Shown here in pieces: positions 35,180 to 51,188 of a stretch of DNA of 51,188 nucleotides. The position numbers and the translations under genes are program-made. The stretch lies in NCBI GenBank assembly GCA_964014485.1, contig CAXHAT010000029.1:1-51188 (forward strand), given 5' to 3'. The notes below the pieces were generated by a model. The model made no database searches. It saw only the letters and a program-made list of their open reading frames with translations, and was not told the DNA's origin. Each line of letters starts with the position of its first letter. The stretch's first letter is position 1. The DNA comes from an uncultured Deferribacteres bacterium. GTDB taxonomy: Bacteria > Zhuqueibacterota > Zhuqueibacteria > Zhuqueibacterales > Geothermadaptataceae.

Positions 35180-36249
35180 AGCTCATGAATCCGGTTTTTG
35201 CGAATTGCCGCAGCCGCCGTTTTTGCCCCGGCCTTGACAACGAAATGAAGCTGCGCAAATCGTTTGTCTTTTGTAAATCCACGCTCAAATCTGGCGAAAA
35301 TTTGCTGGATGATCACGGCGATTTTGTACATGCCGTAGACATAATAAAACAGCGGTTCAAAAGGCACTCTCCCGCTCATTTTCACGTATCGCTCCACAAA
35401 ACTGCGCCTGTCGAGATTGCCCGGCAAACGCGTTAGCCCAAACATGCGCAACTCGGCGGGATCATTTTCTTCCGCCCAATACGCAAGCGTCGTTCCCAAA
35501 TCCATCAGCGGATCGCCAATAGTCGCCATTTCCCAATCCAAAACGGCGGTGATTTCCGCAAGGTTTTCAGGATTGAGAATGATGTTGTCATACTTAAAAT
35601 CGTTGTGAATCAGAGCGCCGGGATTCTCGCTCGGCAAATTTTCGCTCAACCATTCCCCGACCGATTCCATATCTTCAATCTCTTCCGTTTTGGCGGCGGC
35701 GTACCTTTTTCGCCAACCGGAGATTTGTCGTTCGATGTAGCCCTCGGGCTTTCCAAGATCGCCCAGGCCGGCGCGCTCAAAGTCTACGCTGTGAAGTTCA
35801 GCGAATGCGTCAACAAATGCGGTTGACAATTTTCGCATGGTTTCGGTGCTCAAATCAACGCCGGCCGGCGGCTTTGCACGCAAAATTACGCCGGTCACAC
35901 GTTCCATGACGTAAAACGGCGCGCCCAAAACATCAGCGTCGTCGCAACAGAGCAACGCGTTCGGCGCCTTGGGATAAACATTGTGCAGCCTGGAAAGAAT
36001 GCGGTACTCGCGCCCCATGTCGTGAGCGGATTTGATATTCGCGCCGAACGGCGGACGGCGCAGCACAAGCTCTCGCGAGCCGAACTTCAGAAGATAGGTT
36101 AAATTGGAAAAGCCGCCGGGAAATTGCAAGATTTCAAGCTTTCCCTCGACGTTTGGCAGGTTATCTTTCAAATAAGTTTCAAGTCGTTCAAGGTCTAAAT
36201 CTTCCCCTGAACGAATCTCCCCCGGTGCGTCTATACTTCCGTGCGACAC
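35167..36249 (-). CDS. APH-family phosphotransferase (ACAD10/11 kinase domain / LvaA-like); GTG start
   Basis: QFPGGFSNLTY, VLRRPP, SAHDMGREY, LIHNDFKYDN, VLDWEMATIGDPLMDL. Confidence 0.92.
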   Translation of the reverse strand: MSHGSIDAPGEIRSGEDLDLERLETYLKDNLPNVEGKLEILQFPGGFSNLTYLLKFGSRELVLRRPPFGANIKSAHDMGREYRILSRLHNVYPKAPNALLCCDDADVLGAPFYVMERVTGVILRAKPPAGVDLSTETMRKLSTAFVDAFAELHSVDFERAGLGDLGKPEGYIERQISGWRKRYAAAKTEEIEDMESVGEWLSENLPSENPGALIHNDFKYDNIILNPENLAEITAVLDWEMATIGDPLMDLGTTLAYWAEENDPAELRMFGLTRLPGNLDRRSFVERYVKMSGRVPFEPLFYYVYGMYKIAVIIQQIFARFERGFTKDKRFAQLHFVVKAGAKTAAAAIRKNRIHELWRD

Positions 36250-36277
36250 TCATCCCTCCTCAAAACATCGAAAACGC

Positions 36278-36547
36278 CTACATCACCATCGCAATGTCCG
36301 GACTCTGTTTTAATTTTTCAAAAATTGATGTGCGGTGGCGTTCGTCGGTAACGATTGTTACAAGACTCAAACTGATATACTTGCCGCGTGAGCTGGTTTT
36401 TGAAAAGTTCAATTTGTACTCGTTCTCCCCCATGATCTGCGCAATTGCCGCGCGGAGCTTTTCTTCGTTTCCGCCAATTACCGTGTATCGCCACTCGCGC
36501 GGATAGGTCAGTTCGAGACTTTCTTCGATATCATTGATGTTCAGCAT
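36278..36547 (-). CDS. DUF493/YbeD-like small ACT-fold protein
   Basis: LTYPREWRYTVIG, SSRGKYISLSL, ending IAMVM. Confidence 0.85.
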   Translation of the reverse strand: MLNINDIEESLELTYPREWRYTVIGGNEEKLRAAIAQIMGENEYKLNFSKTSSRGKYISLSLVTIVTDERHRTSIFEKLKQSPDIAMVM

Positions 36548-36571
36548 GTCTACCTCTCAAAATAAACCCGG

Positions 36572-37780
36572 TTATTTTTTGACGTCGACGCCGTATTTTT
36601 TTAATAATGTACGTGCAAGCACTGACTTATGCACTTCGTCCGGACCGTCATAAATTCGTGAAGCGCGCTCGTGACGATAGTAAAACGAAAGAATCGTGTC
36701 GTCCGTCATCCCGGCGGCGCCGTGGGTTTGAATAGCGCGGTCGATCACCTTCATCATGACATTAGCGACGAAAAACTTGATCGTTGAGATTTCAGTCCTC
36801 GCGGCGTAGGTTCCCTTGGCGTCGATCAGGGCCGCTGTGTTGAGCACCATGAAGCGCGCGGCGTCAATTTCGGCTCGACTTTCCGCGATCCAATTCTGGA
36901 CAGTTTGCTGTTTGCCCAAAACGCGTCCGGGGGAAATTTCCCGCGTCGCGGCGCGCTGACACATCATATCCAGCGCACGTTCAGAAATCCCGACCCACCG
37001 CATGCAATGATGGATGCGCCCCGGGCCGAGCCGCGTTTGCGCCAGCGTAAAGCCCTGACCTTCTCCTCCCAGAAGATTTTCCTGCGGCACGCGAACGTCC
37101 GTGAAACGCACCTCAGCGTGGCTAAAATAATCGCTTCCCGCTTCGCCCATAATCGGGATATTTCGAATCAACTCAAAGCCGGGCGTATCGAGCGGGACGA
37201 TAATTTGACTGGCTCTCTGGTAAGGGTTTTGAGCTTCAAGATTTGTCTGCGCCATCACAATCGCGAAATCCGCGCCGTCCGCCGAGGAGGTGAACCATTT
37301 GTGGCCGTTGATGACGTAATCATCGCCGTCTTTTTTGGCGGTCGTGCTCATCCACACAGGATTTGAGCCTGCGTGTTCCGGTTCGGTCATCGCGAAACAA
37401 CTGCGAATTTCCCCGGCAATCAACGGCTTGAGAAATTTTTCTTTTTGCGCTTCCGTGCCGAATTCAAGTAAAATTTCCGTATTGCCAATGTCCGGCGCCT
37501 GGCAATTAAACAGGTAATGCCCAAGCGGCGAATGCGCCAGGACTTCGCTCACATGCCCGAATTCATAGAGCGACAAGCCAAGCCCGCCCAGGTTTTTAGG
37601 CAAATGCGGCGTCCAAAGCCCAAGCGACTTGACGCGCTTCCGTTTTTCATCAAGCGCGTTTTTCAGTTCGTCAAACTTTTGCTCCAGAAGCAACGGCTCC
37701 AGCGGCACGGCTTCTTCTATCACAAATTCGCGGATTCGAGTCAGAATCTCAGCAAGCTCTTCGCTCTTCTGTAAAAGCAT
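36572..37780 (-). CDS. Acyl-CoA dehydrogenase (ACAD10/11 / LvaC-like)
   Basis: FNCQAPDIGNTEIL, RSCFAMTEP, AQTRLGPGRIHHCMR, RIYDGPDEVH. Confidence 0.93.
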   Translation of the reverse strand: MLLQKSEELAEILTRIREFVIEEAVPLEPLLLEQKFDELKNALDEKRKRVKSLGLWTPHLPKNLGGLGLSLYEFGHVSEVLAHSPLGHYLFNCQAPDIGNTEILLEFGTEAQKEKFLKPLIAGEIRSCFAMTEPEHAGSNPVWMSTTAKKDGDDYVINGHKWFTSSADGADFAIVMAQTNLEAQNPYQRASQIIVPLDTPGFELIRNIPIMGEAGSDYFSHAEVRFTDVRVPQENLLGGEGQGFTLAQTRLGPGRIHHCMRWVGISERALDMMCQRAATREISPGRVLGKQQTVQNWIAESRAEIDAARFMVLNTAALIDAKGTYAARTEISTIKFFVANVMMKVIDRAIQTHGAAGMTDDTILSFYYRHERASRIYDGPDEVHKSVLARTLLKKYGVDVKK

Positions 37781-37789
37781 TCTCTCGGC

Positions 37790-37845
37790 TTACAGTTTAC
37801 AGTTTACAGTTTACAGTTTACAGTTTACAGTTTACAGTTTACAGC
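37790..37845. repeat. 7-bp tandem repeat (TTACAGT)x7 plus TTACAGC
   Basis: Read directly; ends 9 bp upstream of the ACAD start codon on the minus strand. Confidence 0.95.
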
Positions 37846-37862
37846 ACTAACACTCGCAGTCT

Positions 37863-38576
37863 TCAAACGTAAGTCCTCATCCCGTCCGTTTTCAAATGCG
37901 GAACTTGATTGTGCGCAAGCAAGGTGATGCGGTTTTGGGTGAACAGGAATTCCGAAAATGAAGCGTTGCGAATGACCCAACTTGTTTCCATCGTCTTGCC
38001 GTTTTCCAACCCAAGGACATAAGCCAACGTCGCGGCAATCGGTCCCGCCGAGGTAAAAACAGCGACGCGTTTTCCACGCTGGTGATCGTTCAACACGCGC
38101 TTTACGCCGCGTTCAACGCGAGCGCGAAAAGTTTGCCACGACTCGACGTCGTCATAACCGAGTTCGCCGCGCGACCACTCAAGCATGAATTTCTCAAAAA
38201 AGGTAAAATATTTTTTGCGGGTCTCAGCGCTCCAGCTTTTCACTGGTGCGGCAAATGAGCGATAGGCTTCATCGCGTTCGGTCAATTCCAACGCCGCGCG
38301 CCTGACGGCCTGAGGGCCGGAATGTTCTTCAAATTCATCCAGCAGGACGGCTTCCGGATATGAAACGCGCTTTTCTGAAAAAACTTCCTGGACGAGACTT
38401 TGGGTCTGCTTTTGCCGTTTCAGCGGCCCCGAATAGACGGCGTCGAATCGCATTTCAGCTTCGAGCATGTACTTTCCCAGCGCCGTCGCCTGCTTTTGTC
38501 CAAGCGAGGAAAGCTCGTCGTAATGATCTTTGTAAAAAGTCGCCTGCCCGTGGCGAATGAGTGTCAACGAACTCAT
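37863..38576 (-). CDS. Histidine phosphatase (phosphoglycerate mutase) family protein
   Basis: LIRHGQA, SGPLKRQKQT, VAVFTSAGPI. Confidence 0.92.
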   Translation of the reverse strand: MSSLTLIRHGQATFYKDHYDELSSLGQKQATALGKYMLEAEMRFDAVYSGPLKRQKQTQSLVQEVFSEKRVSYPEAVLLDEFEEHSGPQAVRRAALELTERDEAYRSFAAPVKSWSAETRKKYFTFFEKFMLEWSRGELGYDDVESWQTFRARVERGVKRVLNDHQRGKRVAVFTSAGPIAATLAYVLGLENGKTMETSWVIRNASFSEFLFTQNRITLLAHNQVPHLKTDGMRTYV

Positions 38577-38609
38577 GTTTCCGTCAATCCAATCGTGCGA
38601 ACTTCTGCG

Positions 38610-39368
38610 TTAAAGCGCGGTGATCCCGCCGTCTAAAACCAGGCAGTGCCCGGTGATAAATCCTGCTTCGGGCGAGCACAAATAAACGATCGCATCGGCG
38701 ATTTCTTGCGGTTCGCCCAGCCTGCCTACCGGTAAGCGCCTGGTGAGCATGGCTTCGGACTCCCGCATATTTTCCAATGCGTTTTCAACCATCGGCGTGC
38801 GGGTATAGCCGGGACAAACGGCGTTGATTCGTATGCTTTTCCGGGCGTACTCAATCGCAGCCGTCTTGGTCAGCCCGATGACGCCGTGCTTGCTGGCTGA
38901 ATAGCCCGCATTCTTGGGGTATGCGCCAAGTCCCGCGATAGAAGCCGTGTTTACAATTATTCCATCTCCCTGCTCCAGCATGCGCTCGATTTCGTACTTC
39001 ATACAATAAAAAACGCCGTTCAAATTGACGGCGATTTGGCGTTCCCAATCTTCAAAAGAATGCGTGTGAACCGGACGTTCCTCGCACACAATCCCGGCAT
39101 TATTAATCGCAATATCCAATTTCCCGAATCGGCGAACGGTTTCATCCACCATTCTTCGGACGCTGTCCGGTTTGCTGACGTCCGTCGCAAAAAACCGAGC
39201 ATCGCCGCCGTCTTTAACGATTTTATCGGCAAGCGCTTCGCCTGCTTCCGTTTGAACGTCGCAGATCATGACTTTCGCACGCTCTCGAATAAATCGCCGA
39301 ACCGTTTCAGCGCCGATGCCGGAGCTGCCGCCTGTGACGATCACGACTTTGTTTTTGAAAATTGGCAT
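38610..39368 (-). CDS. Short-chain dehydrogenase/reductase (start ATG 39368; ORF track 39407)
   Basis: VTGGSSGIG, NNAGI, YSASKHG, IRINAVCPG. Confidence 0.95.
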   Translation of the reverse strand: MPIFKNKVVIVTGGSSGIGAETVRRFIRERAKVMICDVQTEAGEALADKIVKDGGDARFFATDVSKPDSVRRMVDETVRRFGKLDIAINNAGIVCEERPVHTHSFEDWERQIAVNLNGVFYCMKYEIERMLEQGDGIIVNTASIAGLGAYPKNAGYSASKHGVIGLTKTAAIEYARKSIRINAVCPGYTRTPMVENALENMRESEAMLTRRLPVGRLGEPQEIADAIVYLCSPEAGFITGHCLVLDGGITAL

Positions 39369-39474
39369 TCTATTGGGGGGTATTTTGAAAAAGGCTGGGG
39401 TTGACAAACATCCTTAGTGAAGATGGATTGGTTTAAAAGCCCGGCAAAGTCTGTGGCCCTAACTTGAAAAAAAT

Positions 39475-39724
39475 ATATCGGAATTCGCGTAACCTTCGTC
39501 GTTTTCGATCTCGCTTTCAGCGGCAATGAATGGTTCTGAATTCGTCTCCCTACACTCCGACTCCTGTATCAATTCTGGTTCCCTCCTCCGCGAAACGCTT
39601 CCGCGCCTCTTCGTACGCAATGCTGGTCTCTTATTCGATTCCGTATGGCTCGGTTCCGTAGTCAGCTTCCACAATCAGTGATCAGATTCTTGTGCGTCGT
39701 CTCTCTCGAAACGAATTCCGATAT
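39475..39724. other. 250-bp intergenic element bounded by perfect 13-bp inverted repeats (MITE-like element or structured RNA)
   Basis: ATATCGGAATTCG at 39475-39487 and CGAATTCCGATAT at 39712-39724; interior strongly purine-skewed on the minus strand. Confidence 0.5.
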
Positions 39725-39726
39725 TT

Positions 39727-41478
39727 TTATGAAAAAGGATAACCCTCCGTTTCTAAAACCGTTTGCGCCAATGCGCGCGTCAAGCCAATCGTGTCGATTG
39801 GTTGCAATTTCGTCAGTTCTTGAACAAAAGCCAACTGCTGCGCCAACGCCTCGTCTTTTAGAAATCGCGAAAGCGCAGTTCGCGACCATTGCGCGATATT
39901 TTCAGCGGCGGCGCTCACATAAACGCGCACCGCAGCGATATGCGCATCGTCGCATTTCCCGGACAAATTGAGCTTTTGAGCGCGAAGAAGAGCGGACTCC
40001 GCAGCGTAAGTCTCCATAATAATGTCGGCGATTCTGCCAAGAACTTCCTGCTCTCGTTCCAAAGCGTTGCCAAACGCATTCGCCGCCGCACCCAAAACGA
40101 TCAGGGCGCAGCGTTTGAAATTCTTCACTCCGGCGCGTTCTGCGGCAAAAGCTCCCTCTTCCTTTGCGTTGTCGCCAAGTCCCGAAGCCGCCTCGCCGAT
40201 TGCATCGAAAAGCGGTAAATTTCCTTTCGCGGCGCTCTTCAAAAGCCTTCCCGGAACGAGCAGACGATTGATCTCGTTCGTGCCTTCAAAAAGTCGATTG
40301 ATTCGGCTGTCCCGGTAGATTTGCTCGATGACGTAATCCTGCGAGTAACCGTAACCGCCGTGCAATTGCACGCCTTCATCAGCGCAGAAATCCATCACTT
40401 CGGTGCCAAGCACCTTTGCCAGCGAGCACTCAAGCGCATATTCCTCAATCGCCGCCAATTTGTGCGCCTGGTCTTCGTTATCGCCAATCAGCGCGTCGAT
40501 GTAGCCAATTGTCCGATAAGTCGCGGATTCAAGCGCGAATGTACGCGCAGCCATTTCGCCGAGTTTTTCCTGAATCAATCCAAACGAAGCTATTGGCTGT
40601 TTGAATTGTTCGCGTTCCTTGGCGTATTTCGAGCAGATTTCCAAAATGATCTTGCAACTGCCCACGCCGCCCGCACCGAGCTTGAACCTGCCGACGTTGA
40701 GAATATTAAACGCGATCTTCGCACCGTCGCCGATTTCGCCAAGCAGATTTTCAACCGGAACCTCGACGTTTTCAAGCATCAATTGCGTCGTCGAAGAAGA
40801 TTTAATGCCCATCTTCTTCTCTTCCGCGCCGGACTTCACGCCGTGTGCACGCTCAACAATAAATGCGCTGAAATTTTTTCGTTCACCGTCAACTTTGGCG
40901 AAAATGATGAAAACATCGGCAAAGCCGCCGTTGGAAATCCACATTTTCGTGCCGTTCAAAATCCAGTGTTTGCCGTCTTCCGACAACACGGCTTGCGTTT
41001 TTGCGCCCATTGCGTCGGAGCCTGATTCCGGCTCAGTCAAAGCATAGGCGCCGATCAGATCGCAAGCAACCATCTTCGGCAAGTAGTGAGATTTCTGCTG
41101 CTCGTTGCCAAAATAAACAATCGGCAGCATCCCGATCGTCATATGCGCGCCTACGGAAACGCTGAAGCCCGCGGCGCGAGACATTTCTTCCGCAACGACC
41201 GTAGCGGCAAGTTTGGATAAAGATGAGCCGTCGTATTTCTCTTCAACCTCGATTCCGAAAATGCCAAGCTCGCCCAATTTCCGCAGCAACGCTTGCGACA
41301 GGCCCGGCTCCTGCTTTTCCAGACGCTCCATGTTCGGCACGATTTCATTCTGACAAAAATCGCGCGTCGTTTGACGAATCATCGCAATTTCATCGTCAAA
41401 CTCTTCCGGAATCAAAACATCGTTCGGCGCTGAGTCTTCAATTAAAAAAGCGCCGCCTTTTAAAAATTTGTTTTCCAT
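39727..41478 (-). CDS. Acyl-CoA dehydrogenase (long FadE/ACAD9-like form); start ATG 41478
   Basis: MENKFLKGGAFL, AYALTEPESGSDA, KMGIKSSST, ILNVGRFKLG, YRDSRINRLFEGTNEINRL. Confidence 0.93.
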   Translation of the reverse strand: MENKFLKGGAFLIEDSAPNDVLIPEEFDDEIAMIRQTTRDFCQNEIVPNMERLEKQEPGLSQALLRKLGELGIFGIEVEEKYDGSSLSKLAATVVAEEMSRAAGFSVSVGAHMTIGMLPIVYFGNEQQKSHYLPKMVACDLIGAYALTEPESGSDAMGAKTQAVLSEDGKHWILNGTKMWISNGGFADVFIIFAKVDGERKNFSAFIVERAHGVKSGAEEKKMGIKSSSTTQLMLENVEVPVENLLGEIGDGAKIAFNILNVGRFKLGAGGVGSCKIILEICSKYAKEREQFKQPIASFGLIQEKLGEMAARTFALESATYRTIGYIDALIGDNEDQAHKLAAIEEYALECSLAKVLGTEVMDFCADEGVQLHGGYGYSQDYVIEQIYRDSRINRLFEGTNEINRLLVPGRLLKSAAKGNLPLFDAIGEAASGLGDNAKEEGAFAAERAGVKNFKRCALIVLGAAANAFGNALEREQEVLGRIADIIMETYAAESALLRAQKLNLSGKCDDAHIAAVRVYVSAAAENIAQWSRTALSRFLKDEALAQQLAFVQELTKLQPIDTIGLTRALAQTVLETEGYPFS

Positions 41479-41498
41479 GAACCAGCTCACCCCCAAAA

Positions 41499-42188
41499 TC
41501 AAACAGTCGTCGTTTCGTTTTTCTCGATAATGTCTTTGGGAACGCCTAACGCCGCGAGTATCGTTCTCAAATGCTCGCAACTCAACTCATAGACGTTCGA
41601 ATTGTGAATATGCGCCGTCAGCAGAACGCCGAACCAAGCGCTTTCTAAAAGGCGCGCAATTTCTCTTGTCGTGAGCTTGGTGACCATTTCTTTCTTCTCG
41701 CGCGCTTCGTCGATATGCTGCTTAAACATCGTGTACAAGCTGGTCACTTCGATTTCGCTGACCCAGGGAATTTCCGGATAAAGCTGCGCTCGCTCGGCGT
41801 AACCCAGCGTCGTCTTTTTCGGTCTGCGGCGAATATTGGCGATTAAACTCACCACGCTCAACGCCAAGCCGCGCGACTGATTATATGTTTCTGCACCTTT
41901 CAAAAAAAGGTGGCGAATCGCTTGAACGCCGGACTTTGCGTTCAAGCGCTGCTCAACCATGCGTTGAAAGTTCCAGACTTCAAACGCATAAATCATCACG
42001 TCTTCTTTTTGGCTGAAATAATTAAACAGCGTGGCGCGGGAGATTTCAGCTTCCTCGGCGATTTGCTCCACATGAATATCACGAAACGTGCCGTCCTTCC
42101 CGATCAATCGCATGGCGCACTCGAGAATCTGTAGTCGGACTTTCGCGCTTTTCCTGTCTCGGAGGGGAATCTTCTCAGTCGCTTGCAT
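41499..42188 (-). CDS. TetR/AcrR-family regulator (start probably ATG 42188, MQATEK)
   Basis: HTH IHVEQIAEEAEISRATLFNYFSQKEDV. Confidence 0.92.
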   Translation of the reverse strand: MQATEKIPLRDRKSAKVRLQILECAMRLIGKDGTFRDIHVEQIAEEAEISRATLFNYFSQKEDVMIYAFEVWNFQRMVEQRLNAKSGVQAIRHLFLKGAETYNQSRGLALSVVSLIANIRRRPKKTTLGYAERAQLYPEIPWVSEIEVTSLYTMFKQHIDEAREKKEMVTKLTTREIARLLESAWFGVLLTAHIHNSNVYELSCEHLRTILAALGVPKDIIEKNETTTV

Positions 42189-42201
42189 CGTCGTCGCCAA
42201 A

Positions 42202-42274
42202 TTAGACTCTTGCTCAAATTTAGACCATCGTCCAAACTTTGATTCCAATCTAATTTTTTCAATTTAAATGTCAA
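42202..42274 (-). promoter_or_regulatory. Sigma-70 promoter (TTGACA-16-TAGATT) overlapped by three tandem pseudo-palindromic operators
   Basis: TTAGACTCTTGCTCAA (42202), TTAGACCATCGTCCAA (42220), TTTGATTCCAATCTAA (42238) at an 18-bp period; -35 at 42274-42269, -10 at 42252-42247. Confidence 0.75.
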
Positions 42275-42751: not shown

Positions 42752-44107
42752 ATGTATTTGAGAACCAAAATGACGCTGGCGGCAACGTTCACCGTCATAA
42801 ATGCAATCATGTTTTCACCATTCGCTCAAGCAAACGAGAACCGGCGTTTCCCGACTCCGGTGATAACCGAAATCGAAGCAACCGGCTACATCAGTGCGAT
42901 GTGCCTGAACGTGCGGCAAGCGCCGGGCGTGCGCTCGGAAATCATCGCGCATTTATTTAAAGGCGACAACGTGGACATTATCGAAAGTCGAAGCCTGGGC
43001 GGCGCGCATCAGTGGCGGCGTGTAATGGACGCTTCCGGATTTGTGGAAGGCTGGGTTTACGGCAAGTACGTTTCCGGCGACGTCGTCAAATCAGACTTTG
43101 TTATTCCAGACGATTACAAAGAACCAAAGACGCCGTCGTTGATGGAAAATGTTTCCGCGAAATATGTCGGCGTTGCGGCCTGTCAAACGTGCCACGACAA
43201 GCCGCACGGCGGTTTTGCTCTCGGCGAATACGGCGTGTGGCGCGATCACTATCATGCCGACGCTTTTGAAACTTTGAAAAAAAGTTACACGAAAGCTTTC
43301 GCTAAAAAACGCGGCGTGGACGATCCGCTGACGGACTGGCGCTGCCGCAAGTGCCACGTCACCGCTTTGGGCGCACCGCCGGAACGATTGGCGGCGAGTT
43401 ACCGCGACGAAGACGGCGTTGGCTGTGAAGTGTGCCACGGGCCCGGCGGCGATTATTTAAACGACCATTGGCCCGGAACCGCAGGCTACGAAAAACGCGA
43501 GACGTTGGGTTTCCGCGTCCTGCGCGATATTGAAGAGCGCGACCAATTCTGCCGCTCTTGCCACAATCCGCTCAGCCCGACCTACAAGCCGTTCAACGTG
43601 GCGGCGTTCTCCGAAGCCATTCGCCATTGGCCGGAAGAAGATTTTCAAGCGTTCGCCGAAGCTAAAAACGCCGGCGTGCCCGAAGCGCAGCAGATTGCCC
43701 AAACGCCGCCGAAGCCTGTGCCGCAAAAAACGGTTCCGCCGCCAAAGCTTCCTGCTGCGAAAAAAGATGCGAAACCGGCGCCTGCGCCAACAAACGGCGG
43801 CGCTCGCTTGGCAGGCGCGCCCAAGGAAACGTTTCTCAATCGCAACGGCGCCAAGCGCGGCAAAGTCTTTTTCTCGCATTTTGCTCACTTCGACTATGTT
43901 GAGGCGGAAACCGAGGCCGAGAATTGCCTGGTGTGTCACCACACAACAAAGCCAAAAGCGCGCCCGGAAAATTGCGGCGTTTGCCACAAGGTTCAGCCGA
44001 CGGCTGCCGCGCCGAGTCGCGAGAAAGCCTTTCACAACACGTGCCGAGCCTGTCACAAAGAAATTGAAGCTGGGCCTAGAACGTGTACGCAGTGCCATGA
44101 ATTGTAG
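42752..44107 (+). CDS. Exported octaheme cytochrome c: SH3b domain + c554-like tetraheme + Pro-rich linker + class III (c3-like) tetraheme
   Basis: LNVRQAPG..IIAHLFKGDNV..GWVYGKYV SH3b; CQTCH, CRKCH, CEVCH, CRSCH; VFFSHFAH, CLVCHH, CGVCH, AFHNTCRACH, CTQCH. Confidence 0.9.
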   Translation: MYLRTKMTLAATFTVINAIMFSPFAQANENRRFPTPVITEIEATGYISAMCLNVRQAPGVRSEIIAHLFKGDNVDIIESRSLGGAHQWRRVMDASGFVEGWVYGKYVSGDVVKSDFVIPDDYKEPKTPSLMENVSAKYVGVAACQTCHDKPHGGFALGEYGVWRDHYHADAFETLKKSYTKAFAKKRGVDDPLTDWRCRKCHVTALGAPPERLAASYRDEDGVGCEVCHGPGGDYLNDHWPGTAGYEKRETLGFRVLRDIEERDQFCRSCHNPLSPTYKPFNVAAFSEAIRHWPEEDFQAFAEAKNAGVPEAQQIAQTPPKPVPQKTVPPPKLPAAKKDAKPAPAPTNGGARLAGAPKETFLNRNGAKRGKVFFSHFAHFDYVEAETEAENCLVCHHTTKPKARPENCGVCHKVQPTAAAPSREKAFHNTCRACHKEIEAGPRTCTQCHEL

Positions 44108-44130
44108 CGACGCGATGCATCGCGTCTATA
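44104..44130. repeat. GTAG-type REP-like palindrome
   Basis: GTAGC-GACGCGATGCATCGCGTC-TATA; perfect 18-bp palindrome at 44109-44126, with the GTAG overlapping the cytochrome stop codon. Confidence 0.7.
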
Positions 44131-44205
44131 GCTGCCGCTATGGCCGACGAAAATTGTAAAGAATCCGGAAAAATCAACATGCACAACAACGTGAGGAAAC
44201 CGGAA

Positions 44206-45783
44206 ATGTCGTTAAAATCAAAATTGCCAAAAACAGCCGCGGCGACGCTCCTTTTATGCAGCGCCGCCTTTTCGCAAGAAAACCAAATCGGCGGCCTTGA
44301 AAAAGCCGCCCTTTCGGAAGAACGGCAAGCGCCTGAAGTCTCCGAAACGCATGTGGAAGAAAAAGAAGCTTCAACGCCGACAGTCGTTTTGAAGCCCTGG
44401 CAACCGCAAGACCGTTGGCGCGTGTCGAAATACAGCGCGCGAAGCTTGAGAAATCGCTGGCGCGTACTCGATGCGACCGGCGTTCCGGTGCCGCGCCCTT
44501 CTATTTTCGATCCGTACAATCAGAATCCGCTGAAGGGCGACTTCCCGGTTTTGGGCCAAAACACGTTCATGGTTTTCACCGGCGTCGCCACCCCGGCGTC
44601 TGCATTTTCCTCGCAGAACAACGCGGCGATTCAGGCGAACAGTAATTTTGTCACGGCGCTGGAGTTTTTTCACGGCTCAACGGTATTCAAGCCGAAAGAT
44701 TGGAGTTTGAAAGCTTCGGCCAACGCCAAGCTGGATTTCATCGACGCCAACAAAAATCAAAACATTGATCTCCTGGAATTGTTTGGCGAAGTGAAGCTTT
44801 TCGACGTTGGCGACAATTTCGATTTCACTTCATTGCGCGCCGGAATTCAGGGCTTTGCCTCTGATTTCGACGGCTTTATTTTCAAGGACGTCAACCTGGG
44901 CGCGCAGCTTTTCGGCGAATTGCGTCAGAATCGGCATCAGTGGGCTCTGGCTTATTTCGACCGTCTCAACAAAGGCGGCTCCGTCGCTGACTTCAACCTG
45001 TTAGGCCAGCAAGTCTTTGCCGCCAGCCTGTTTTGGGAAGATATTTTCAAGCCTGGCTTCAAAACGGTTTTTTCGTTTCTTTATAATCGCGACCGCGCCG
45101 TTGACGAGAACAATCTCGATGTTTTCTATCTCGGCTTCGCCTCTGCCGGGAATTTTGGCCGCTTCGAATTCAATCCCACGTTCAATTTTGCGTTTGGAAC
45201 GGAAGGTTTTAATCCCATCGCCCAGAGCGAAACGACGGTCACTGCGTTCCTCGCCGGGATGGAGTTGGCGTATGTCAAAAACCACCGAAACTATCGCACC
45301 GCCGCCTTTGTCGCGTCCGGCGACGGCAACCCGAACGACGACCAAGCGACCGGTTTCGATAGCATTAACGACAACATCGCGCTGTTTGGGGCGGGCAACA
45401 GTTTCATTATTGGCGCAACGCAGTTTTTCACCAACGCCAACAGTTTTCTGCCTTCAAATCGCACGGAAGGAATTTCAAATTTCGTCAACCCGGGCATGGT
45501 TTTGCTCAATCTCGGCCTCGATCTCGTGTTGACGCCGAAAACGTTTTTCCAGTTCGACGCGAACAATTTTCGCTTTTTAAATACGTCGTCGCTGGAAAAC
45601 GTCGATGAAAGACAGGTGGGCAATGAAATCGTGGCGGCGCTGAATTACCGGGTTTTTCTGAATGAGAATTTCATTTTCCAACTCGGCGGCAGCGCGTTTT
45701 TTCCGGCGGCCGGCGGCGAACAGGTTTTGGGCGACGGGAGCACAGTTTTCACCGCCAAAGCGGCGCTGGTAACAGTGTTTTGA
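44206..45783 (+). CDS. Outer-membrane beta-barrel (porin of a putative porin-cytochrome complex); start ATG 44206, ORF track 44140
   Basis: GAGG RBS; signal peptide (AAATLLLCSAAFSQ); DPYNQNPLKGDFP motif; aromatic/Asn-rich beta strands; C-terminal ALVTVF; lies between two multiheme genes. Confidence 0.8.
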   Translation: MSLKSKLPKTAAATLLLCSAAFSQENQIGGLEKAALSEERQAPEVSETHVEEKEASTPTVVLKPWQPQDRWRVSKYSARSLRNRWRVLDATGVPVPRPSIFDPYNQNPLKGDFPVLGQNTFMVFTGVATPASAFSSQNNAAIQANSNFVTALEFFHGSTVFKPKDWSLKASANAKLDFIDANKNQNIDLLELFGEVKLFDVGDNFDFTSLRAGIQGFASDFDGFIFKDVNLGAQLFGELRQNRHQWALAYFDRLNKGGSVADFNLLGQQVFAASLFWEDIFKPGFKTVFSFLYNRDRAVDENNLDVFYLGFASAGNFGRFEFNPTFNFAFGTEGFNPIAQSETTVTAFLAGMELAYVKNHRNYRTAAFVASGDGNPNDDQATGFDSINDNIALFGAGNSFIIGATQFFTNANSFLPSNRTEGISNFVNPGMVLLNLGLDLVLTPKTFFQFDANNFRFLNTSSLENVDERQVGNEIVAALNYRVFLNENFIFQLGGSAFFPAAGGEQVLGDGSTVFTAKAALVTVF

Positions 45784-45797
45784 TGATTCAAGAAAAA

Positions 45798-45819
45798 GAG
45801 TCAAACGCTTCAGCGTTTG
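45798..45819. repeat. REP-like hairpin CAAACGCT-TC-AGCGTTTG, same family as 6504-6562
   Basis: GAGTCAAACGCTTCAGCGTT vs GAGTCTAACGCTTCAGCGTT (minus strand, 6542-6561). Confidence 0.65.
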
Positions 45820-45825
45820 TTGTAA

Positions 45826-46009
45826 AATCCCCTCCGAGGAGGGGACGATGACCGCAAAGTGCGCGGAGCGCGGCTTGGCGGTTATCCAGGGTGGGTTTCA
45901 CCGAGCGTTGGTCTAGAATTTCGAGTGTGAACGACGCGTAAACCCGCCCCTGACCGCTGCTCAACGGCTTCGCCGGTCGCAGCAGTCGTCCCCTCCCTGG
46001 AGGGGAATT
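45826..46009. repeat. REPIN/MITE-like element with TCCCCTCC..GGAGGGGA terminal hairpins
   Basis: TCCCCTCCGAGGAGGGGACGA (45828-45848) vs reverse complement of 45986-46006 TCCCCTCCAGGGAGGGGACGA (19/21); inner GGGTGGGTTT / AAACCCGCCC arms. Confidence 0.8.
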
Positions 46010-46014
46010 CTGAG

Positions 46015-46045
46015 TCTCGTGACAACGGTCTCCATTGTGACGAGA
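46015..46045. repeat. Short hairpin TCTCGTGACAA..TTGTGACGAGA
   Basis: 11-bp arms with one mismatch. Confidence 0.55.
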
Positions 46046-46065
46046 AGCACAAAACTGTTTTTCAC

Positions 46066-46136
46066 GTCATTCCCGCGCAGGCGGGAATCCAGAAAAACGT
46101 GCAAAGCCAATAGATTCCCGCCTGCGCGGGAATGAC
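46066..46136. repeat. dRS3/RPE-like palindromic repeat GTCATTCCCGCGCAGGCGGGAATC..GATTCCCGCCTGCGCGGGAATGAC
   Basis: Perfect 24-bp inverted repeat containing the ATTCCC-N8-GGGAAT core. Confidence 0.85.
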
Positions 46137-46193
46137 TAAATGAGCGCTCTGTATCTTGCGACTCGGTTTCTAACGATTTAAAAGAGAATACAG

Positions 46194-49100
46194 ATGAAAT
46201 TCGCACAACCACGAGCAACTGGATTACGGGGAATTTCAAAACTTTTCATCATCGCCTGTCTTGGCGTTTCGACAACAGGCGCCTTCGCCGCGCCTCAGGC
46301 GGAATCGGTTGAAAAAGAGAAAAAGTCCGCGAAACGAACAGACGAAATCTACCTGCCGAAAAAATTGACTGAAGCCGACATTCAATTTATGTTTAAGGAT
46401 TCGCGCTCCTGCGTGACGTGCCACCAAGGCATTGAATCGATGCACGGCGACGGGGACGGACAAGTGGGCGTGACCTGCGTCGGCTGCCACGGCGGCAATG
46501 GCGATGCGGAGAAAAAAGAAAAGGCCCACGTTAAACCGAAAAACAAGAATTTTTTCAAAACTTCGGCGAATCCGGAGCACGCTTACACCGCGTTCAATAA
46601 CGAATCCGGCGAATTCATCCGCTTTATCAATCCCGGCGATTTCCGGGTGATGGATCAGACGTGCGCCAAATGCCACGCCGAGATCACCTCAAAAATCCTA
46701 ACGTCGTCGATGACGCACAGCGCGATGATTCCACAGGCCGGGCTCTACAACAACGGCATCCACGACGCCAAGATTCCTGTTTACGGTGAAGCTTACATGC
46801 CCGACGGTTCGCCCGCGATTTTGACAACGCCGAACAACGACAAAACGGCGCAGGAATTTAAAAACGGCTTGACCAGCCTTGTCGATAAATTGCAGCCCTT
46901 GCCGCGATTTGAAGTCACCCCGGCGACCGACGCTTTTCGCGTGCTTGAACGCGGCAACAACGACGCTGGCGCGCGCGGCCCCGGCACGGACTTTCATGTA
47001 GCGGGCGGCTCCATCGTGCTCAACAAAACGCGCCTGAACGACCCGACGCTCTGGTTTCTCGGCCCCAACCAAACGCGCGGCGATTTTCGCAGCAGCGGCT
47101 GCACGGCTTGCCACGTGCCTTACGCCAACGATCGCGACCGTCTCGCTAGCGGGCCGGTGGTTTCAGCATTTTGGGATCGCGGCGGCAAAGCCGGGCATGC
47201 CGGAACAGGCGATAAAAATATTCCAAAAGACGAGCCCGGCCATCCCTTCGCGCACAGCATGACGCTGGGCGTGCCGACTTCGCAATGCATTACGTGCCAC
47301 CACCATCAGGGCAACGGCGCCATTTCGAGCTATGCAGGAGCGATGTGGTGGGATCAGGAAACGGACGCCAAACTCGTTTTGAATGCACGCGAGCAGCGGG
47401 ACGAAAATATTAGCGAGAAAAAACGCGAAAAGCTAGCGCGCGCCGGAAAGCTTTTTGAGGACATTCAGTTCGCCGATTTCTACGGCCATTCGTGGAACTT
47501 CCGAAAGGTTTACAAGCGCGACCTGAAAGGCAATTTGCTGGACAAAGCTGGAAACATTGTGCCGGACGACGACCCGAAACGATTCGACAAAGCCGTCCAT
47601 CTGCGCGACGTCCACTTTGAAAAAGGTATGCACTGCATCGATTGTCACACGCAGCAGGATGTTCACGGGGATGGGCGGCTTTGGGGCGCGATGGCCGACG
47701 CGATTGAAATCCAGTGCGAAGATTGCCACGGCACAGTGGCGCAAAAAGCCACGCTGGTGACCTCCGGCCTGAACGGCGGTTTCGCCATGGCGGATCGTCG
47801 TACCGGCGCCAAAACGCAGTTTGGCGAGCGGCAGTTTGTGATGAAAAAAGGCAAGGTTTTTCAACGCTCAAAAGTCTACAAAGATTTGGAGTGGGAAGTG
47901 CCGCAACTCGCTGATATCGTCGATCCGAAAAGCCCGGAATTCAACGCTGTCGCGGCGCGAGCGAAAACGCTTTTGAAAGGCGGTGAAGTCTGGGGCGAGC
48001 CGGTGAACGATCTTGGCTCGCTGGCGCACAACACCGAGAGCATGGATTGCTCGGCCTGTCACAATTCCTGGAACACGACCTGTTACGGTTGCCACCTTTC
48101 CGCAGAGGTCAACCAAAAAGAGGACAACATTCACTACGAAGGTTCGACGACGCGGGCGTACGTGAATTACAATCCGCAAGTCATCCGCTCAGACGGCTTT
48201 ATGCTCGGCGTCGGAGCCAGTTCCAAGGGCAATAAAATCCAAACCATTCGCTCGGCGACCGCCGTGACGGTGACGGTGCGTGATCGCGGGCGCAATCAGG
48301 TCGTGCATCAGCAAAATACGATTGCGGCGAGCGGGCATTCCGGCTACGCAGTTTCGCCGAACACGCCGCACACGGTGCGAAAAACGGAAACGCGCGACTG
48401 CTCAAGCTGCCACATTTCAGCGAAAAACGACAACAACTCGTGGATGGCTTCGACGCTCGGCTTCGGTACGAACATGGTGAATTTCATTGGTGAATTTGCT
48501 TACGTCGCCGCCGGGAAATCCGGCATTCGCGCAGTGAAAGTGACTGAGGGCAAGGAGCCGCAGCCAGTCATTGGCAGCAATTTCCACAAAATCCTCCATC
48601 CGAAGTCAGCGCAGAAATTTGAGAAAAACGGACGGCGTTTGCAAACGGCGCGAAAATCGAGTTCGAGCAATGCGCGCAACATCGCAACGCGCGGCGAGTT
48701 TGTCTTCGTCGCCGACGGGCCGGGCGGATTCAGGGTTTACGACCGGGCGAATATCGCCAACAAGGCAAAGGCTCAGAAATTGGTCAAAACGCAAAACAGC
48801 GGCTTTGGCCAGGACACGCACATCAAAACAAAATTCGCCACCGACGTTGCGCTGCCTTCAACTGTGCCGATGAATCCGGATCGTCCGCAGCGCCCGGAAA
48901 ACCTGGAAACGCCGGTCGCGGATTTGTTCCGCTACGCTTTCGTCACCGATTTGAAGGAAGGCTTGATCGTCGTCGACGTGAACACGTTCACAGATCATCA
49001 ACCGCAAAATAATTTCATCAAACGTGCGGCAACTTTTAATCCGGGCAATAAATTGCGCGGCGCGGTGAAAATCCAAATCGCTGGCAATTACGCCTACATC

Positions 49101-49841
49101 GTCAGCGTGAAAACCGGGCTGCATGTCGTGAATATTGAGAATCCGTTGCAGCCCAAGCTGGTCGCCAATATTGGCGCGCCGGAGATCACGGTCGCGCGTT
49201 CGCTCGACATTCAATTTCGCTATGTGTTTATCGCAGACAAGGTTGGGTTGAAGGTGGTCGATATTACTTCGCCGCAACGCCCGCGCCTGGTGAAAAATGC
49301 GAAAATCCCGCTCGCCGACGCACGCGACGTGTACGTGATGCGAACCTACGCCTACGTCGCCGCCGGGAGCGACGGCCTGGCGATCATCGACGTTGAAAGT
49401 CCGGAAGCGCCCAAGTTGATTGAAAAATTTACTGCGAATGGTCAGCTCAACGACGTTCACGCAATCACTACAGGCGCGGTCAACGCGAGCATTTTTGCCT
49501 TTGTCGCGGACGGTAAGAACGGCCTACGCGTGTTGCGCTTGATCGAGCCGCCGTTTACGCCGGGGCATCTTGGTTACTCGCCCAAGCCTACGCCTGCATT
49601 GCTGGCAACGTTCAAAACGTCCGGCCCGGCGGTCGGCATTGCCGAAGGCGCAAAACGCGACCGTGCGGTGGATGAAAGCGGCAACCAGATCGGCGTTTCC
49701 GGACGGCTTGGCTCACATCCGCTGAATCGCAGCGACCTTGACCGATTGTTGAAAGTCAACGGCAAGTTTTTCAAAGTTGAAGATAGCCGAGATGTGTTCA
49801 AAAAAGCGAAACCGGCGCAGGAGTCGTCGGGGCAGGAATAA
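46194..49841 (+). CDS. 1215-aa exported decaheme cytochrome c fused to LVIVD-repeat beta-propeller
   Basis: Signal peptide; ten CxxCH (CVTCH, CVGCH, CAKCH, CTACH, CITCHHH, CIDCH, CEDCH, CSACH, CYGCH, CSSCH); repeats such as YAYVAAGSDGLAIIDVESPEAPKLI. Confidence 0.92.
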   Translation: MKFAQPRATGLRGISKLFIIACLGVSTTGAFAAPQAESVEKEKKSAKRTDEIYLPKKLTEADIQFMFKDSRSCVTCHQGIESMHGDGDGQVGVTCVGCHGGNGDAEKKEKAHVKPKNKNFFKTSANPEHAYTAFNNESGEFIRFINPGDFRVMDQTCAKCHAEITSKILTSSMTHSAMIPQAGLYNNGIHDAKIPVYGEAYMPDGSPAILTTPNNDKTAQEFKNGLTSLVDKLQPLPRFEVTPATDAFRVLERGNNDAGARGPGTDFHVAGGSIVLNKTRLNDPTLWFLGPNQTRGDFRSSGCTACHVPYANDRDRLASGPVVSAFWDRGGKAGHAGTGDKNIPKDEPGHPFAHSMTLGVPTSQCITCHHHQGNGAISSYAGAMWWDQETDAKLVLNAREQRDENISEKKREKLARAGKLFEDIQFADFYGHSWNFRKVYKRDLKGNLLDKAGNIVPDDDPKRFDKAVHLRDVHFEKGMHCIDCHTQQDVHGDGRLWGAMADAIEIQCEDCHGTVAQKATLVTSGLNGGFAMADRRTGAKTQFGERQFVMKKGKVFQRSKVYKDLEWEVPQLADIVDPKSPEFNAVAARAKTLLKGGEVWGEPVNDLGSLAHNTESMDCSACHNSWNTTCYGCHLSAEVNQKEDNIHYEGSTTRAYVNYNPQVIRSDGFMLGVGASSKGNKIQTIRSATAVTVTVRDRGRNQVVHQQNTIAASGHSGYAVSPNTPHTVRKTETRDCSSCHISAKNDNNSWMASTLGFGTNMVNFIGEFAYVAAGKSGIRAVKVTEGKEPQPVIGSNFHKILHPKSAQKFEKNGRRLQTARKSSSSNARNIATRGEFVFVADGPGGFRVYDRANIANKAKAQKLVKTQNSGFGQDTHIKTKFATDVALPSTVPMNPDRPQRPENLETPVADLFRYAFVTDLKEGLIVVDVNTFTDHQPQNNFIKRAATFNPGNKLRGAVKIQIAGNYAYIVSVKTGLHVVNIENPLQPKLVANIGAPEITVARSLDIQFRYVFIADKVGLKVVDITSPQRPRLVKNAKIPLADARDVYVMRTYAYVAAGSDGLAIIDVESPEAPKLIEKFTANGQLNDVHAITTGAVNASIFAFVADGKNGLRVLRLIEPPFTPGHLGYSPKPTPALLATFKTSGPAVGIAEGAKRDRAVDESGNQIGVSGRLGSHPLNRSDLDRLLKVNGKFFKVEDSRDVFKKAKPAQESSGQE

Positions 49842-49906
49842 CCAGCAAATACAGGGACGTATTGCACACGTCCCCACCATACATGCTTTTTAAAATCATC
49901 CCGCCA

Positions 49907-49974
49907 TGTCATTCAGGAGGAATCTATTTTGCCCAGCCCGTGAAGTGGGCAAAATAGATTCCTCCTGAATGACA
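49907..49974. repeat. Perfect 29-bp inverted repeat with 10-nt loop (TGTCATTC..GAATGACA family)
   Basis: TGTCATTCAGGAGGAATCTATTTTGCCCA / TGGGCAAAATAGATTCCTCCTGAATGACA. Confidence 0.9.
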
Positions 49975-50026
49975 ATCGGCGGCGTCACCCATAGATTAAA
50001 ACTTTGTCCTAACAATCGAACGCTCA

Positions 50027-51188
50027 ATGATCATCGCTGAACCTAAATCGAAAACTGTCGAAAAAACGCCCGTTCAAAACCTGCGGACGATGCACAAGCG
50101 TCGTGAGCTTTTTCATGATCGTTGGACGATTGCGGGCGGCGCCAGCGGCGTGGCTGAAGTCTCAGATTTACTGTCGCCATCCGATCTCAAGCGCTTTGGA
50201 ATTTTCGACAAGTACGACGACGCTTTTTTGACGGAGATTAGCCACGACGTTTCCGTGGCGCAGTGGAAATCGGGCGCCGTCCTTTTTGAAGAAGGCGGTT
50301 ATATCGACGTAGCGTTTTTCATTGTAACCGGCAGCGTCGACGTTTTTGTCAATGGAACTTCAGAAGCCAGGATCGGCGGTTCGCACCACGATCAGCAGAC
50401 GCGCAAAAATCGAAAGTCGCGTCAGCGTCTGACTTATCTTTCAGTGATGGATTTCAATTTACCCATAAACGGTCGAATGCGGCTCGGCTCCGGCCATGTG
50501 TTCGGCGAAATCGGGGCCTTGAGCGGCTGGCCGCAGTCGGTGACGGCCCGCACGGCGACCAAGTGTCTTTTGGTGCAAATTCGCAAACCGGCGCTGCGCA
50601 AAATGCGCGATCAATCACCCCATTTCAAAGACTGGATTGACGATATTTATCGAAAAAATTACTTGCCGTTGGAGCTTAAGCGCACGCCGGCTTTTCGAAA
50701 ATGCGGCGGCGAGTTTATCAAAGCATTGTCTCAAAAGGTTGAGTTGGTTTCTTGCCGCAAGGACGCTGAAATCGTGCTGCAAGGCGCGCCGGTTCAGTCG
50801 GTGTACATCGTACGAGCGGGATTTGTCAAACTCAGCCAGAATGTTGATGGACGGCCGTTCGTCGTTTCCTATCTTTCCAAAGGCCAGATTTTGGGCGACG
50901 TCGAGCTTTTAATGGAAGGCGTCGAGACTTGGCAGTTTACGGCTTCTTCCGTCAAACGCAGCGAATTGATCAAGATTTCGCGGCGCGATTTCGAAGAAAT
51001 TTTCATGACGCATCCGGCGGTCGAAAAGCAATTGTGGCGGCGCGCTGAAAAGCGAATCAAGGAATCCGGTCACATCAAAGAAAATCTCAACGGCGCCGCT
51101 TTTTTGGACGACGCGCTTGAAAAAGGTCTGCCGCAAGGGCGCAGCATTCTGGTCATCAATCTCGATCAATGCACGCGCTGCGATGATT
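50027..51188 (+). CDS. Tandem cyclic-nucleotide-binding domain protein with start of a 4Fe-4S ferredoxin domain; truncated at window end and absent from the ORF track
   Basis: Translated by hand from ATG 50027: LFEEGGYIDVAFFIVTGSV..GHVFGEIGALSGWPQSVTA; second domain IVLQGAPVQSVYIVRAGFVKL..LSKGQILGDVELL; ends LVINLDQCTRCDD in the same frame. Confidence 0.88.
   Translation, partial: MIIAEPKSKTVEKTPVQNLRTMHKRRELFHDRWTIAGGASGVAEVSDLLSPSDLKRFGIFDKYDDAFLTEISHDVSVAQWKSGAVLFEEGGYIDVAFFIVTGSVDVFVNGTSEARIGGSHHDQQTRKNRKSRQRLTYLSVMDFNLPINGRMRLGSGHVFGEIGALSGWPQSVTARTATKCLLVQIRKPALRKMRDQSPHFKDWIDDIYRKNYLPLELKRTPAFRKCGGEFIKALSQKVELVSCRKDAEIVLQGAPVQSVYIVRAGFVKLSQNVDGRPFVVSYLSKGQILGDVELLMEGVETWQFTASSVKRSELIKISRRDFEEIFMTHPAVEKQLWRRAEKRIKESGHIKENLNGAAFLDDALEKGLPQGRSILVINLDQCTRCDD

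Follow-up and report, generated by a model that had tools for sequence, protein, structure and literature searches.

The 51 188-nucleotide stretch analysed here, called the window below, is the entire contig CAXHAT010000029.1 (C29) of the genome GCA_964014485.1 (G000) of an uncultured Deferribacteres bacterium, a genome of 465 contigs that is 97 % complete. At its right end the window carries the first part of a porin-cytochrome operon, which continues on a second contig of the same genome, C251. The operon consists of eight genes, A to H, with 28 c-type haem motifs across the two contigs. Its features are the following, with positions in the window unless C251 is named:

42752-44107, + strand: gene A, open reading frame with eight CxxCH motifs and the Pfam domains SH3_3, Cytochrome_C554 and Cytochrom_CIII
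44140-45783, + strand: gene B, likely start at 44206 (525 aa), no CxxCH motif, 18-strand barrel as predicted by AlphaFold2
46056-46140, no strand assigned: REP-like palindromic repeat between B and C, outside the system
46194-49841, + strand: gene C, ten CxxCH motifs, haem region and predicted LVIVD propeller
49901-49980, no strand assigned: second palindromic repeat, between C and D, outside the system
50027-51188 (contig end), + strand: 5' part of gene D, two Pfam cNMP_binding domains, no CxxCH motif
G000:C251:2-430: remainder of gene D, ferredoxin tail
C251:489-1319: gene E, predicted dihaem-b membrane protein, 277 aa
C251:1530-2696: gene F, membrane-anchored decahaem cytochrome, 389 aa
C251:2763-3737: gene G, FHA-FHA protein
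C251:3946-6258: gene H, FAD (Pyr_redox)-FHA-FHA-2Fe2S flavoprotein

The first-pass annotation of the window had described four co-oriented genes with 18 CxxCH motifs that run on past the right edge, and this is what we found: A, B, C and D contain 8, 0, 10 and 0 motifs, respectively, and the tail of D and genes E to H lie on C251. A search of the genome with the contig-cut D as query gave no continuation, and C251 was located with a full-length D homologue, which aligns over residues 2-415 to the end of C29 and over residues 417-558 to the start of C251. Furthermore, a 1776-base contig from the public run X1, possibly the source sample, spans window positions 50450-51188 and C251:1-1036 with zero mismatches and one base in between, a bridge that represents a second assembly and not an independent sample. 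The cluster is not a product of chance, since every one of 36 aligned homologues of C retains all ten haem motifs and the gene order recurs in several phyla. The outer pair B-C is found from KSB1-like bacteria to cultured Sphingobium. Among named homologues, the nearest belong to candidate division KSB1, Calditrichia and Rhodothermales.

For the outer barrel B, AlphaFold2 with a 120-sequence alignment predicts 18 membrane strands (pLDDT 92.4, pTM 0.89); the database gene call for this protein likewise has 525 aa. Neither Pfam nor NCBIfam gave a match to B, and PDB sequence searches yielded nothing significant. By fold, AlgE ranks first in both Foldseek and VIA-align (Z 28.1, root-mean-square deviation 2.9 Å over 356 residues), followed in VIA-align by the Occ channels (Z 26.5 for OccD2), while MtrB is absent among the listed fold matches of both programs, an absence that excludes nothing. 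A conserved 60-residue loop, L7, is predicted between strands 13 and 14 and presumably folds into the lumen, as in AlgE/OprD; mean conservation is 0.67 in L7 and 0.69 in the periplasmic turns, compared with 0.51 in the other outer loops.

With AlgE as its best fold match, and with Atlas neighbours that bear automatic alginate-export names, B might be a true AlgE-like exporter, in which case C would be a periplasmic redox enzyme that modifies the exported polymer or an envelope component. Such an export function seems very improbable to us. The sequence identity to AlgE is only 10-13 %, the small-solute Occ (OprD-family) channels fit nearly equally well, and B shares the 18-strand fold with both channel types but is paired with cytochromes instead of polysaccharide synthesis genes, no synthase or glycosyltransferase being seen among the neighbours scanned. 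B and C together also fill the position that a porin-pentahaem pair holds in related clusters. In addition, Alginate_exp had no Pfam match in B, and PF13372 was found in 1 of 120 listed homologues.

C is predicted to combine a periplasmic decahaem cytochrome c, at about residues 60-760, with a seven-bladed LVIVD beta-propeller in one chain. The modelled propeller superimposes on 1l0q with Z 32.1 and a root-mean-square deviation of 2.1 Å over 275 residues; the haem region has a mean pLDDT of 58.5, with 501 of the 1142 residues of the model below pLDDT 50, and is unusable. Beyond the haem motifs, 13 His and two Met are invariant in the 36 homologues, with neither a further conserved Cys nor a CxxCK motif. 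N-termini in the family resemble cleavable signal peptides without a lipobox, as judged by eye. Among the 120 listed C homologues, 118 show at least 97 % query coverage and at least 45 % identity, and 7802 of 8000 scored candidates pass an E value of 0.001, part of them probably through the propeller alone.

PDB sequence searches with C returned no significant relative of its haem region. This region weakly resembles ExtM/ExtN (NF040943, E 1.9e-28, 99.1 bits against a cut-off of 800); the match of the C profile to octahaem nitrite reductase (E 0.0025) covers two motifs only and was not taken as kinship. Distant relatives of the C haem region, lacking both propeller and B, are found in five deltaproteobacterial loci (L034-L037 and L040), where pairs of 11- and 10-haem ExtM-like cytochromes are followed by a Rieske protein and an ExtP-like cytochrome b.

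The modelled complex of B (446 residues) with C 658-1200 supports binding of C by B, in line with the expectation of the first-pass annotation that barrel and cytochrome bind each other. It scored 0.81 in three runs, while the best of three controls scored 0.00; of the solved complexes 116 out of 157 attain the mark used for this score, and of the mismatched pairs 2 out of 215, figures that are only approximate with the alignments used. The runs agreed in at least 93 % of contacts, with partner pLDDT of at least 88. All named contacts of B lie, by the strand order of the model, on periplasmic turns, adjoining strand ends or the N-terminal arm, and those of C on a propeller insertion (857-872, 897-903 and 937-938) and on 698-701/712, between haems 9 and 10. 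The B-side contact positions have a conservation of 0.72, compared with a barrel mean of 0.59. Thus, this half of C is predicted to dock beneath the barrel on its periplasmic face and not through the lumen. One B-C fusion, P0241, turned up as a single match among 7998 longer candidates, but in it the end of B is missing, as are haems 1 to 3 of C, and it is probably an assembly chimera or a deletion.

A is predicted to be a periplasmic octahaem cytochrome with an SH3 domain, a c554-like tetrahaem domain, which resembles the PtdD discussed below, and a class III (c3) tetrahaem domain. Its N-terminal signal peptide was judged by eye, and its best match among PDB sequences is cytochrome c554 (1bvb, E 4e-9). 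Full-length homologues of A in loci L001 and L002 have 47-52 % identity, and its c554-like domain is 24-35 % identical to c554-like proteins with three to five haems in related loci. A B-family barrel with a fused N-terminal cytochrome occurs once among 119 homologues (P0089); an Atlas cluster of 57 members (TM 0.85) has Cytochrom_CIII in 91 % of them, and in another of 123 members 66 % carry SH3. Since SH3 and a c-type cytochrome, the two outer domains of A, are thus found fused to B-family barrels, A likely works at B.

The cytochrome fusions, together with the porin and multihaem layout, the 28 c-type haems and the nine-haem part of C that lies outside the docking model, would also fit outward extracellular electron transfer by the chain proposed below. 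In that case, haems from the N-terminal part of C, or else the c3 domain of A, would reach into the barrel, and the electrons would be delivered to minerals, humics, electrodes or neighbouring cells. We regard this as unlikely. The barrel has 18 predicted strands compared with 26 in MtrB/MtoB and carries the conserved L7, the operon genes include no predicted surface cytochrome, and the hosts include Sphingobium, which are aerobic heterotrophs and not known as metal respirers. MtrCAB, MtoAB and PioAB do, in the accounts consulted, share with the operon an outer-membrane barrel gene adjoining a decahaem predicted to bind the barrel. They differ from it, besides strand number, in haem spacing (about 33 residues per haem in MtrA-like wires, 74 in C) and in that the modelled half of C sits under the barrel, with no surface lipoprotein cytochrome seen here. 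A haem wire through the barrel, which the first-pass annotation had considered, is not indicated, given the 18 strands, the AlgE/Occ fold, the conserved L7 and the contacts of the modelled half of C with periplasmic turns. Cyc2 likewise combines a small barrel with a periplasmic haem domain, as do the B-family members with an N-terminal cytochrome, whereas B itself is unfused, has no haem motif and is predicted to have 18 strands instead of the 16 predicted for Cyc2 in the source consulted (PMC13741234).

The genes downstream of C are consistent with an electron-transfer chain that spans the inner membrane, and a membrane cytochrome b, an FAD oxidoreductase and a 2Fe-2S protein, for which the first-pass annotation had advised looking, are all encoded on C251. 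Of the cNMP-cNMP-ferredoxin gene that it reported, the two cyclic-nucleotide-binding (cNMP) domains stand, whereas the ferredoxin part of D is cut after its third cysteine (CTRCDD) and its remaining cysteines are on C251; full-length D homologues have a 16-Cys pattern in this tail, with DmsB as the best match. The sequence of E shows five hydrophobic helices, a WxxxHx13H motif at both 83 and 252, and SGLVG, an SGxxG motif, at 125. Its first His pair is invariant in eight of eight aligned sequences and the second in seven, the remaining sequence being cut short. The two HX13H pairs, which would bind haem b, lie on membrane helices 3 and 5, as in the ferric reductase/NOX superfamily. E matches the Pfam family Ferric_reduct weakly (E 0.002; 18.6 bits, with the cut-off at 28), and a PDB sequence search gave nothing significant; in NOX proper an FNR-type dehydrogenase is fused to the membrane domain, whereas E is a stand-alone protein.

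F combines its ten CxxCH motifs with a single N-terminal helix, and a profile that includes it recovers alphaproteobacterial decahaem cytochromes. H consists of Pyr_redox_2/3, two FHA and Fer2 domains according to Pfam; its closest solved sequence is 7a76 (E 4e-9) and its best NCBIfam match YpdA, both far below family level. By eye, H contains GGGTSA followed by YRR, which we take to be an NADPH signature, and no CxxC. Ferredoxin and E form a single open reading frame in L056, L100, L103, L104 and L105, and FAD, cNMP and ferredoxin parts are fused in L085, L087, L092-L095 and Sphingobium herbicidovorans. Because of these fusions, the flavin, iron-sulfur and b-haem parts probably lie on one path, and E would have a dedicated cytoplasmic flavin partner. 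Domain architectures and downstream genes thus support the earlier proposal of a porin-multihaem redox system of non-Mtr type.

An inner half of this kind has been described from genomes. In the text of He, Barco, Emerson and Roden (2017), PCC4 comprises a porin, 4-, 5- and 10-haem cytochromes and a Fer4_11 gene upstream, and the inner-membrane protein of PCC3 and PCC4, characterised by five helices, an SGxxG motif and a pair of WX3HX13H motifs, is likened to ferric reductase/NOX (PMC5566968). Subgroup II of PCC4 shares with our operon these inner-membrane motifs, the Fer4_11 gene directly upstream, the 4- and 10-haem cytochromes and the lack of an extracellular cytochrome, but the operon has no 5-haem cytochrome, a porin of another family and an additional decahaem-propeller protein; this comparison was made with the text of that paper (PMC5566968), and some PCC4 clusters may hold a B-type porin. 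More recently, Elbon, Stewart and Glass presented a putative porin-cytochrome operon, ptdABCDEFG, whose function they call completely unknown (10.1101/2023.11.21.568154). When matched by gene order and haem counts, and not by sequences, the tetrahaem PtdD corresponds to a domain of A, PtdE to D, PtdF to E and PtdG to F, and both systems have a porin and a flavoprotein, while the pentahaem PtdA and the porin PtdB, as given in the main text of the preprint, are replaced here by C and B. An FHA-FHA gene is added in our operon, and its flavoprotein has a YpdA/TrxR fold with two FHA domains, whereas the alphaproteobacterial loci encode an FNR-type protein (FAD_binding_6, NAD_binding_1 and Fer2) that probably plays the same role.

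The replacement of the outer parts appears complete. The eight genes include no five-haem open reading frame that could encode a PtdA-type pentahaem with its C-terminal beta-sandwich, although five-motif reading frames exist elsewhere in the genome. Between B and the PtdB-type porin (alignment A5, equated with PtdB via gene order only), hhalign gave a probability of 0.4 %, so that relatedness is undetectable, and a profile search of the genome with A5 found no match. The operon is therefore a variant, not a member, of PCC4/Ptd: it probably functions in the same manner and four parts are shared, but the correspondence failed for PtdA, PtdB and PtdC-type parts. Kinship of the Ptd pentahaem with ExtKL/MccSep was considered and rejected (weak match, E 7e-13; no conserved extra Cys in 14 aligned sequences).

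A functional analogy is offered by the Geobacter extHIJKLMNOPQS genes, where, in the parts of the sources consulted, a small-solute porin likewise stands beside periplasmic multihaem proteins and MccSep/ExtKL is a demonstrated periplasmic polysulfide reductase (PMC5877670, PMC13510729). The likeness goes no further than analogy, as C stays at 99 bits against the cut-off of 800, contains no conserved extra Cys or Sec, and is accompanied by no Rieske/cytochrome b6 pair.

Full-text literature searches, which were not exhaustive (they missed the ptd preprint, and subscription journals and bioRxiv supplements were outside their scope), returned no description of a B-C pair. The one paper that combines LVIVD, multiheme and cytochrome concerns a separate LVIVD protein, and 'LVIVD' is absent from the main text of the ptd preprint (10.1101/2023.11.21.568154). 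Hence, of the uncharacterised system announced in the first-pass annotation, the outer pair B-C does appear undescribed, while the inner half is that of PCC4/Ptd; the barrel-decahaem module and its predicted periplasmic docking appear to be the new part. A functional test of PCC4/Ptd was not found in the literature searched.

The two outer modules are distributed as follows. After removal of 10 duplicate loci, B is immediately 5' of C in all 43 loci that hold both (40 pass the gap rule, and in three the genes are adjacent with overlapping open frames), and five more loci begin within 72 bases of C. In the 151 genomes of the phylum, including our own, a close E (E value 1e-79 or better) is present in 27 and B in 25, all of them among those 27, and 24 further genomes have weaker paralogues only. 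The two genomes with a close E and no B (G130 and G032) carry a pentahaem and a PtdB-type porin ahead of the same D-E-F-G-H genes. In a survey of the alphaproteobacterial class, E was present in 45 of 401 genomes, at 47 places; 20 of these were examined, of which 19 pass the E threshold, 13 with pentahaem and porin, four with B-C, two with neither in the stretch and none with both. All these counts are descriptive and not statistics, the kin not being independent. Strict mutual exclusion of the modules is refuted at the genome level, as G114, G567 and G569 hold both. B and C remain 36-80 % identical across phyla, full-length C was found on 13 sphingomonad replicons, and the cultured Sphingobium herbicidovorans MH possesses the complete set (NZ_CP020539.1, B6S01_RS18410-18455).

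In two loci, L004 and L005, the partners of B-C are a NapC/NirT-like tetrahaem and a small cNMP-domain protein in place of the Ptd inner chain. The NapC/NirT family feeds electrons outward from quinol. The same two loci (L004 6735-14832 and L005 6697-14080) also encode monohaem cytochromes, one of which is fused to DinB. A PCC3-like cluster with a membrane protein, 20-21-haem and 7-12-haem cytochromes and a 4Fe-4S flavoprotein occurs in L002 (1-6436) and L096 (6410-13501); in L002 its position is immediately 5' of A-B-C, and the stretch examined there contains no Ptd inner genes.

It is tempting to speculate that B and C form an undescribed, interchangeable terminal module, i.e. a decahaem propeller oxidoreductase clamped under its own substrate channel, which plugs either into an NADPH-fed, split NOX-like chain under phosphothreonine or cNMP control or into a NapC-like quinol dehydrogenase; we put this forward tentatively, as a possibility somewhat short of an even chance.

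Regarding signal input, the first-pass annotation had suggested gating by cyclic nucleotides, which is plausible for the wider family and doubtful in this clade. The first cNMP cassette of D in the window, FGEIGALSGWPQSVT, has Gln in place of Arg, and the second cassette is degenerate. Gln occupies this position in 11 of 11 proteins of the clade, whereas Arg is kept in 25 of 27 other listed proteins, the other two having no matched cassette. Glu and Arg presumably make up the phosphate-binding motif of such cassettes, as in CRP, and gating is doubtful here because this phosphate-binding Arg is Gln. Instead, the FHA domains would point to phosphothreonine control: by eye, three of the four in G and H have the GR and SxxH residues that we assume bind phosphothreonine.

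Signalling parts of this kind would also suit a redox sensor, in which the haem chain would inform cytoplasmic FHA, kinase and cNMP circuits of redox conditions outside the cell and carry no bulk electron flow. Many loci of relatives have FHA proteins, Ser/Thr kinases and PP2C phosphatases beside them, FHA-like domains are fused to F in four of eight alphaproteobacterial proteins scanned, an HbpS-like protein stands 5' of B in many loci, and the cNMP link is kept even in the NapC-type loci. We nevertheless judge a sensory role rather improbable, since the redox parts examined carry no fused output domain of the kinase, cyclase or DNA-binding type, the fusions have their cNMP domains between flavin and ferredoxin, which would be a place for a control input, and our operon contains neither a kinase gene nor, like the rest of the genome by tblastn, an HbpS-like gene. 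Kinase and PP2C genes do not flank it either, and A takes the place of the HbpS-like gene. The HbpS-like proteins of the relatives have two or three such domains (e.g. L062 1753-3399, L056 4415-5968, L092 5469-7445 and L020 3953-7270) and often a lipobox by eye; in Planctomycetota they are fused to a matrixin domain, once with RTX repeats, and nine aligned sequences show no invariant His.

The direction of flow has been seen differently for PCC4, where a donor such as Fe(II), Mn(II), nitrite or a sulfur species would be oxidised at the pore and electrons passed through E into the quinone pool. He et al. proposed this model and reported PCC4 in Fe(II) oxidisers (PMC5566968), the preprint describes ptdAB transcripts from oxygen-deficient waters and the presence of ptd in Nitrospirales (10.1101/2023.11.21.568154), and Cyc2 would provide a precedent (PMC13741234). 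However, a cytoplasmic ferredoxin and flavoprotein are encoded next to E or fused with it, and a cytochrome coupled to quinone would have no need of them. Reduction of NADP+ by such donors is moreover uphill, and ferric-reductase/NOX proteins work outward; both count against inward flow, which we hold to be improbable.

The genes with their motifs, linkage, co-occurrence and fusions are observed, and the barrel fold, the propeller and the docking of C on B are predicted by models. From these we infer the following scheme, including the cofactors bound, the order of the carriers, the direction, the use of NADPH, the phosphothreonine control and the role of the substrate. The cytoplasmic H, with FAD and a 2Fe-2S cluster, would take electrons from NADPH and pass them to D with its four putative 4Fe-4S clusters, from where they would reach the two predicted haems b of E in the inner membrane, the ten haems c of the anchored F, the eight of A and finally the ten of C at the periplasmic mouth of B. 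C would then reduce a small solute that enters through B; our guess for this solute would be a metal chelate, an oxyanion or a shuttle of the quinone type. Such an outward chain, from NADPH to a periplasmic decahaem under a narrow pore that admits its small substrate, has in our view about an even chance of being right. The wide haem spacing of C and the absence of a lipobox by eye speak for it.

Several points weigh against this outward chain and its terminal module. He et al. favoured the opposite direction, into quinone (PMC5566968), and in Cyc2 models haem is found in a 16-strand barrel, so that strand number alone is, judging from that source, insufficient to exclude surface transfer (PMC13741234). 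The C-side interface is hardly more conserved than the remainder of that half (0.65 and 0.63, respectively), and C 59-657, with nine of the ten haem motifs, is outside the docking model, which means that insertion into the pore is possible. In addition, the invariant His residues of C suffice for ten bis-His haems and a catalytic haem is not evident, so that C may be a carrier, and E was not found in three of three small genomes searched (G158, G162 and G163) with B-C loci of the acidobacterial type.

As to the surroundings of the operon, the two palindromic repeats of the window had 276 blastn matches on 135 contigs (46056-46140) and 55 on 31 contigs (49901-49980) in the genome, and a third REP-like palindromic repeat between operon genes (C251:1351-1470) had 278 genome matches. 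A TetR regulator (Pfam; 41499-42248, - strand) is divergent from A, and beyond it (35167-41580, - strand) are open reading frames that seem to encode a pair of acyl-CoA dehydrogenases, a short-chain dehydrogenase, a protein resembling phosphoglycerate mutase, and a phosphotransferase. The neighbours on this side were not seen beside the cluster in relatives. Downstream of the operon, C251 encodes a LuxR-type response regulator (6643-7269) and a HisKA_3 sensor kinase (8288-9553). Among the relatives, Sphingobium herbicidovorans has two genes of the ShlB/FhaC family and one for a protein of 2092 aa that matches no Pfam entry on the flanks of its cluster (L110 1-7578 and 27038-28717), and a SIR2-like gene beside an nSTAND1 NTPase, possibly a defence system, lies near another cluster (L066 16730-19999).

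PCC4/Ptd clusters are currently read as candidate conduits for metal respiration or iron oxidation. Our data suggest that the same inner chain accepts two unrelated outer modules, and the fusions suggest that its partner is cytoplasmic NAD(P)H and not quinone, which bears on how far porin-cytochrome genes in metagenomes can be taken to indicate extracellular electron transfer. For the decahaem-propeller proteins, a large family, sequence comparison gives no relative of solved structure, and in the cultured Sphingobium herbicidovorans MH the direction, location and substrate of the system are directly testable. If the tentative reading of B-C as an interchangeable terminal module holds true, bacteria, aerobes included, would have a means, under the control of signals, of spending cytoplasmic NADPH on a reaction at the outer membrane.

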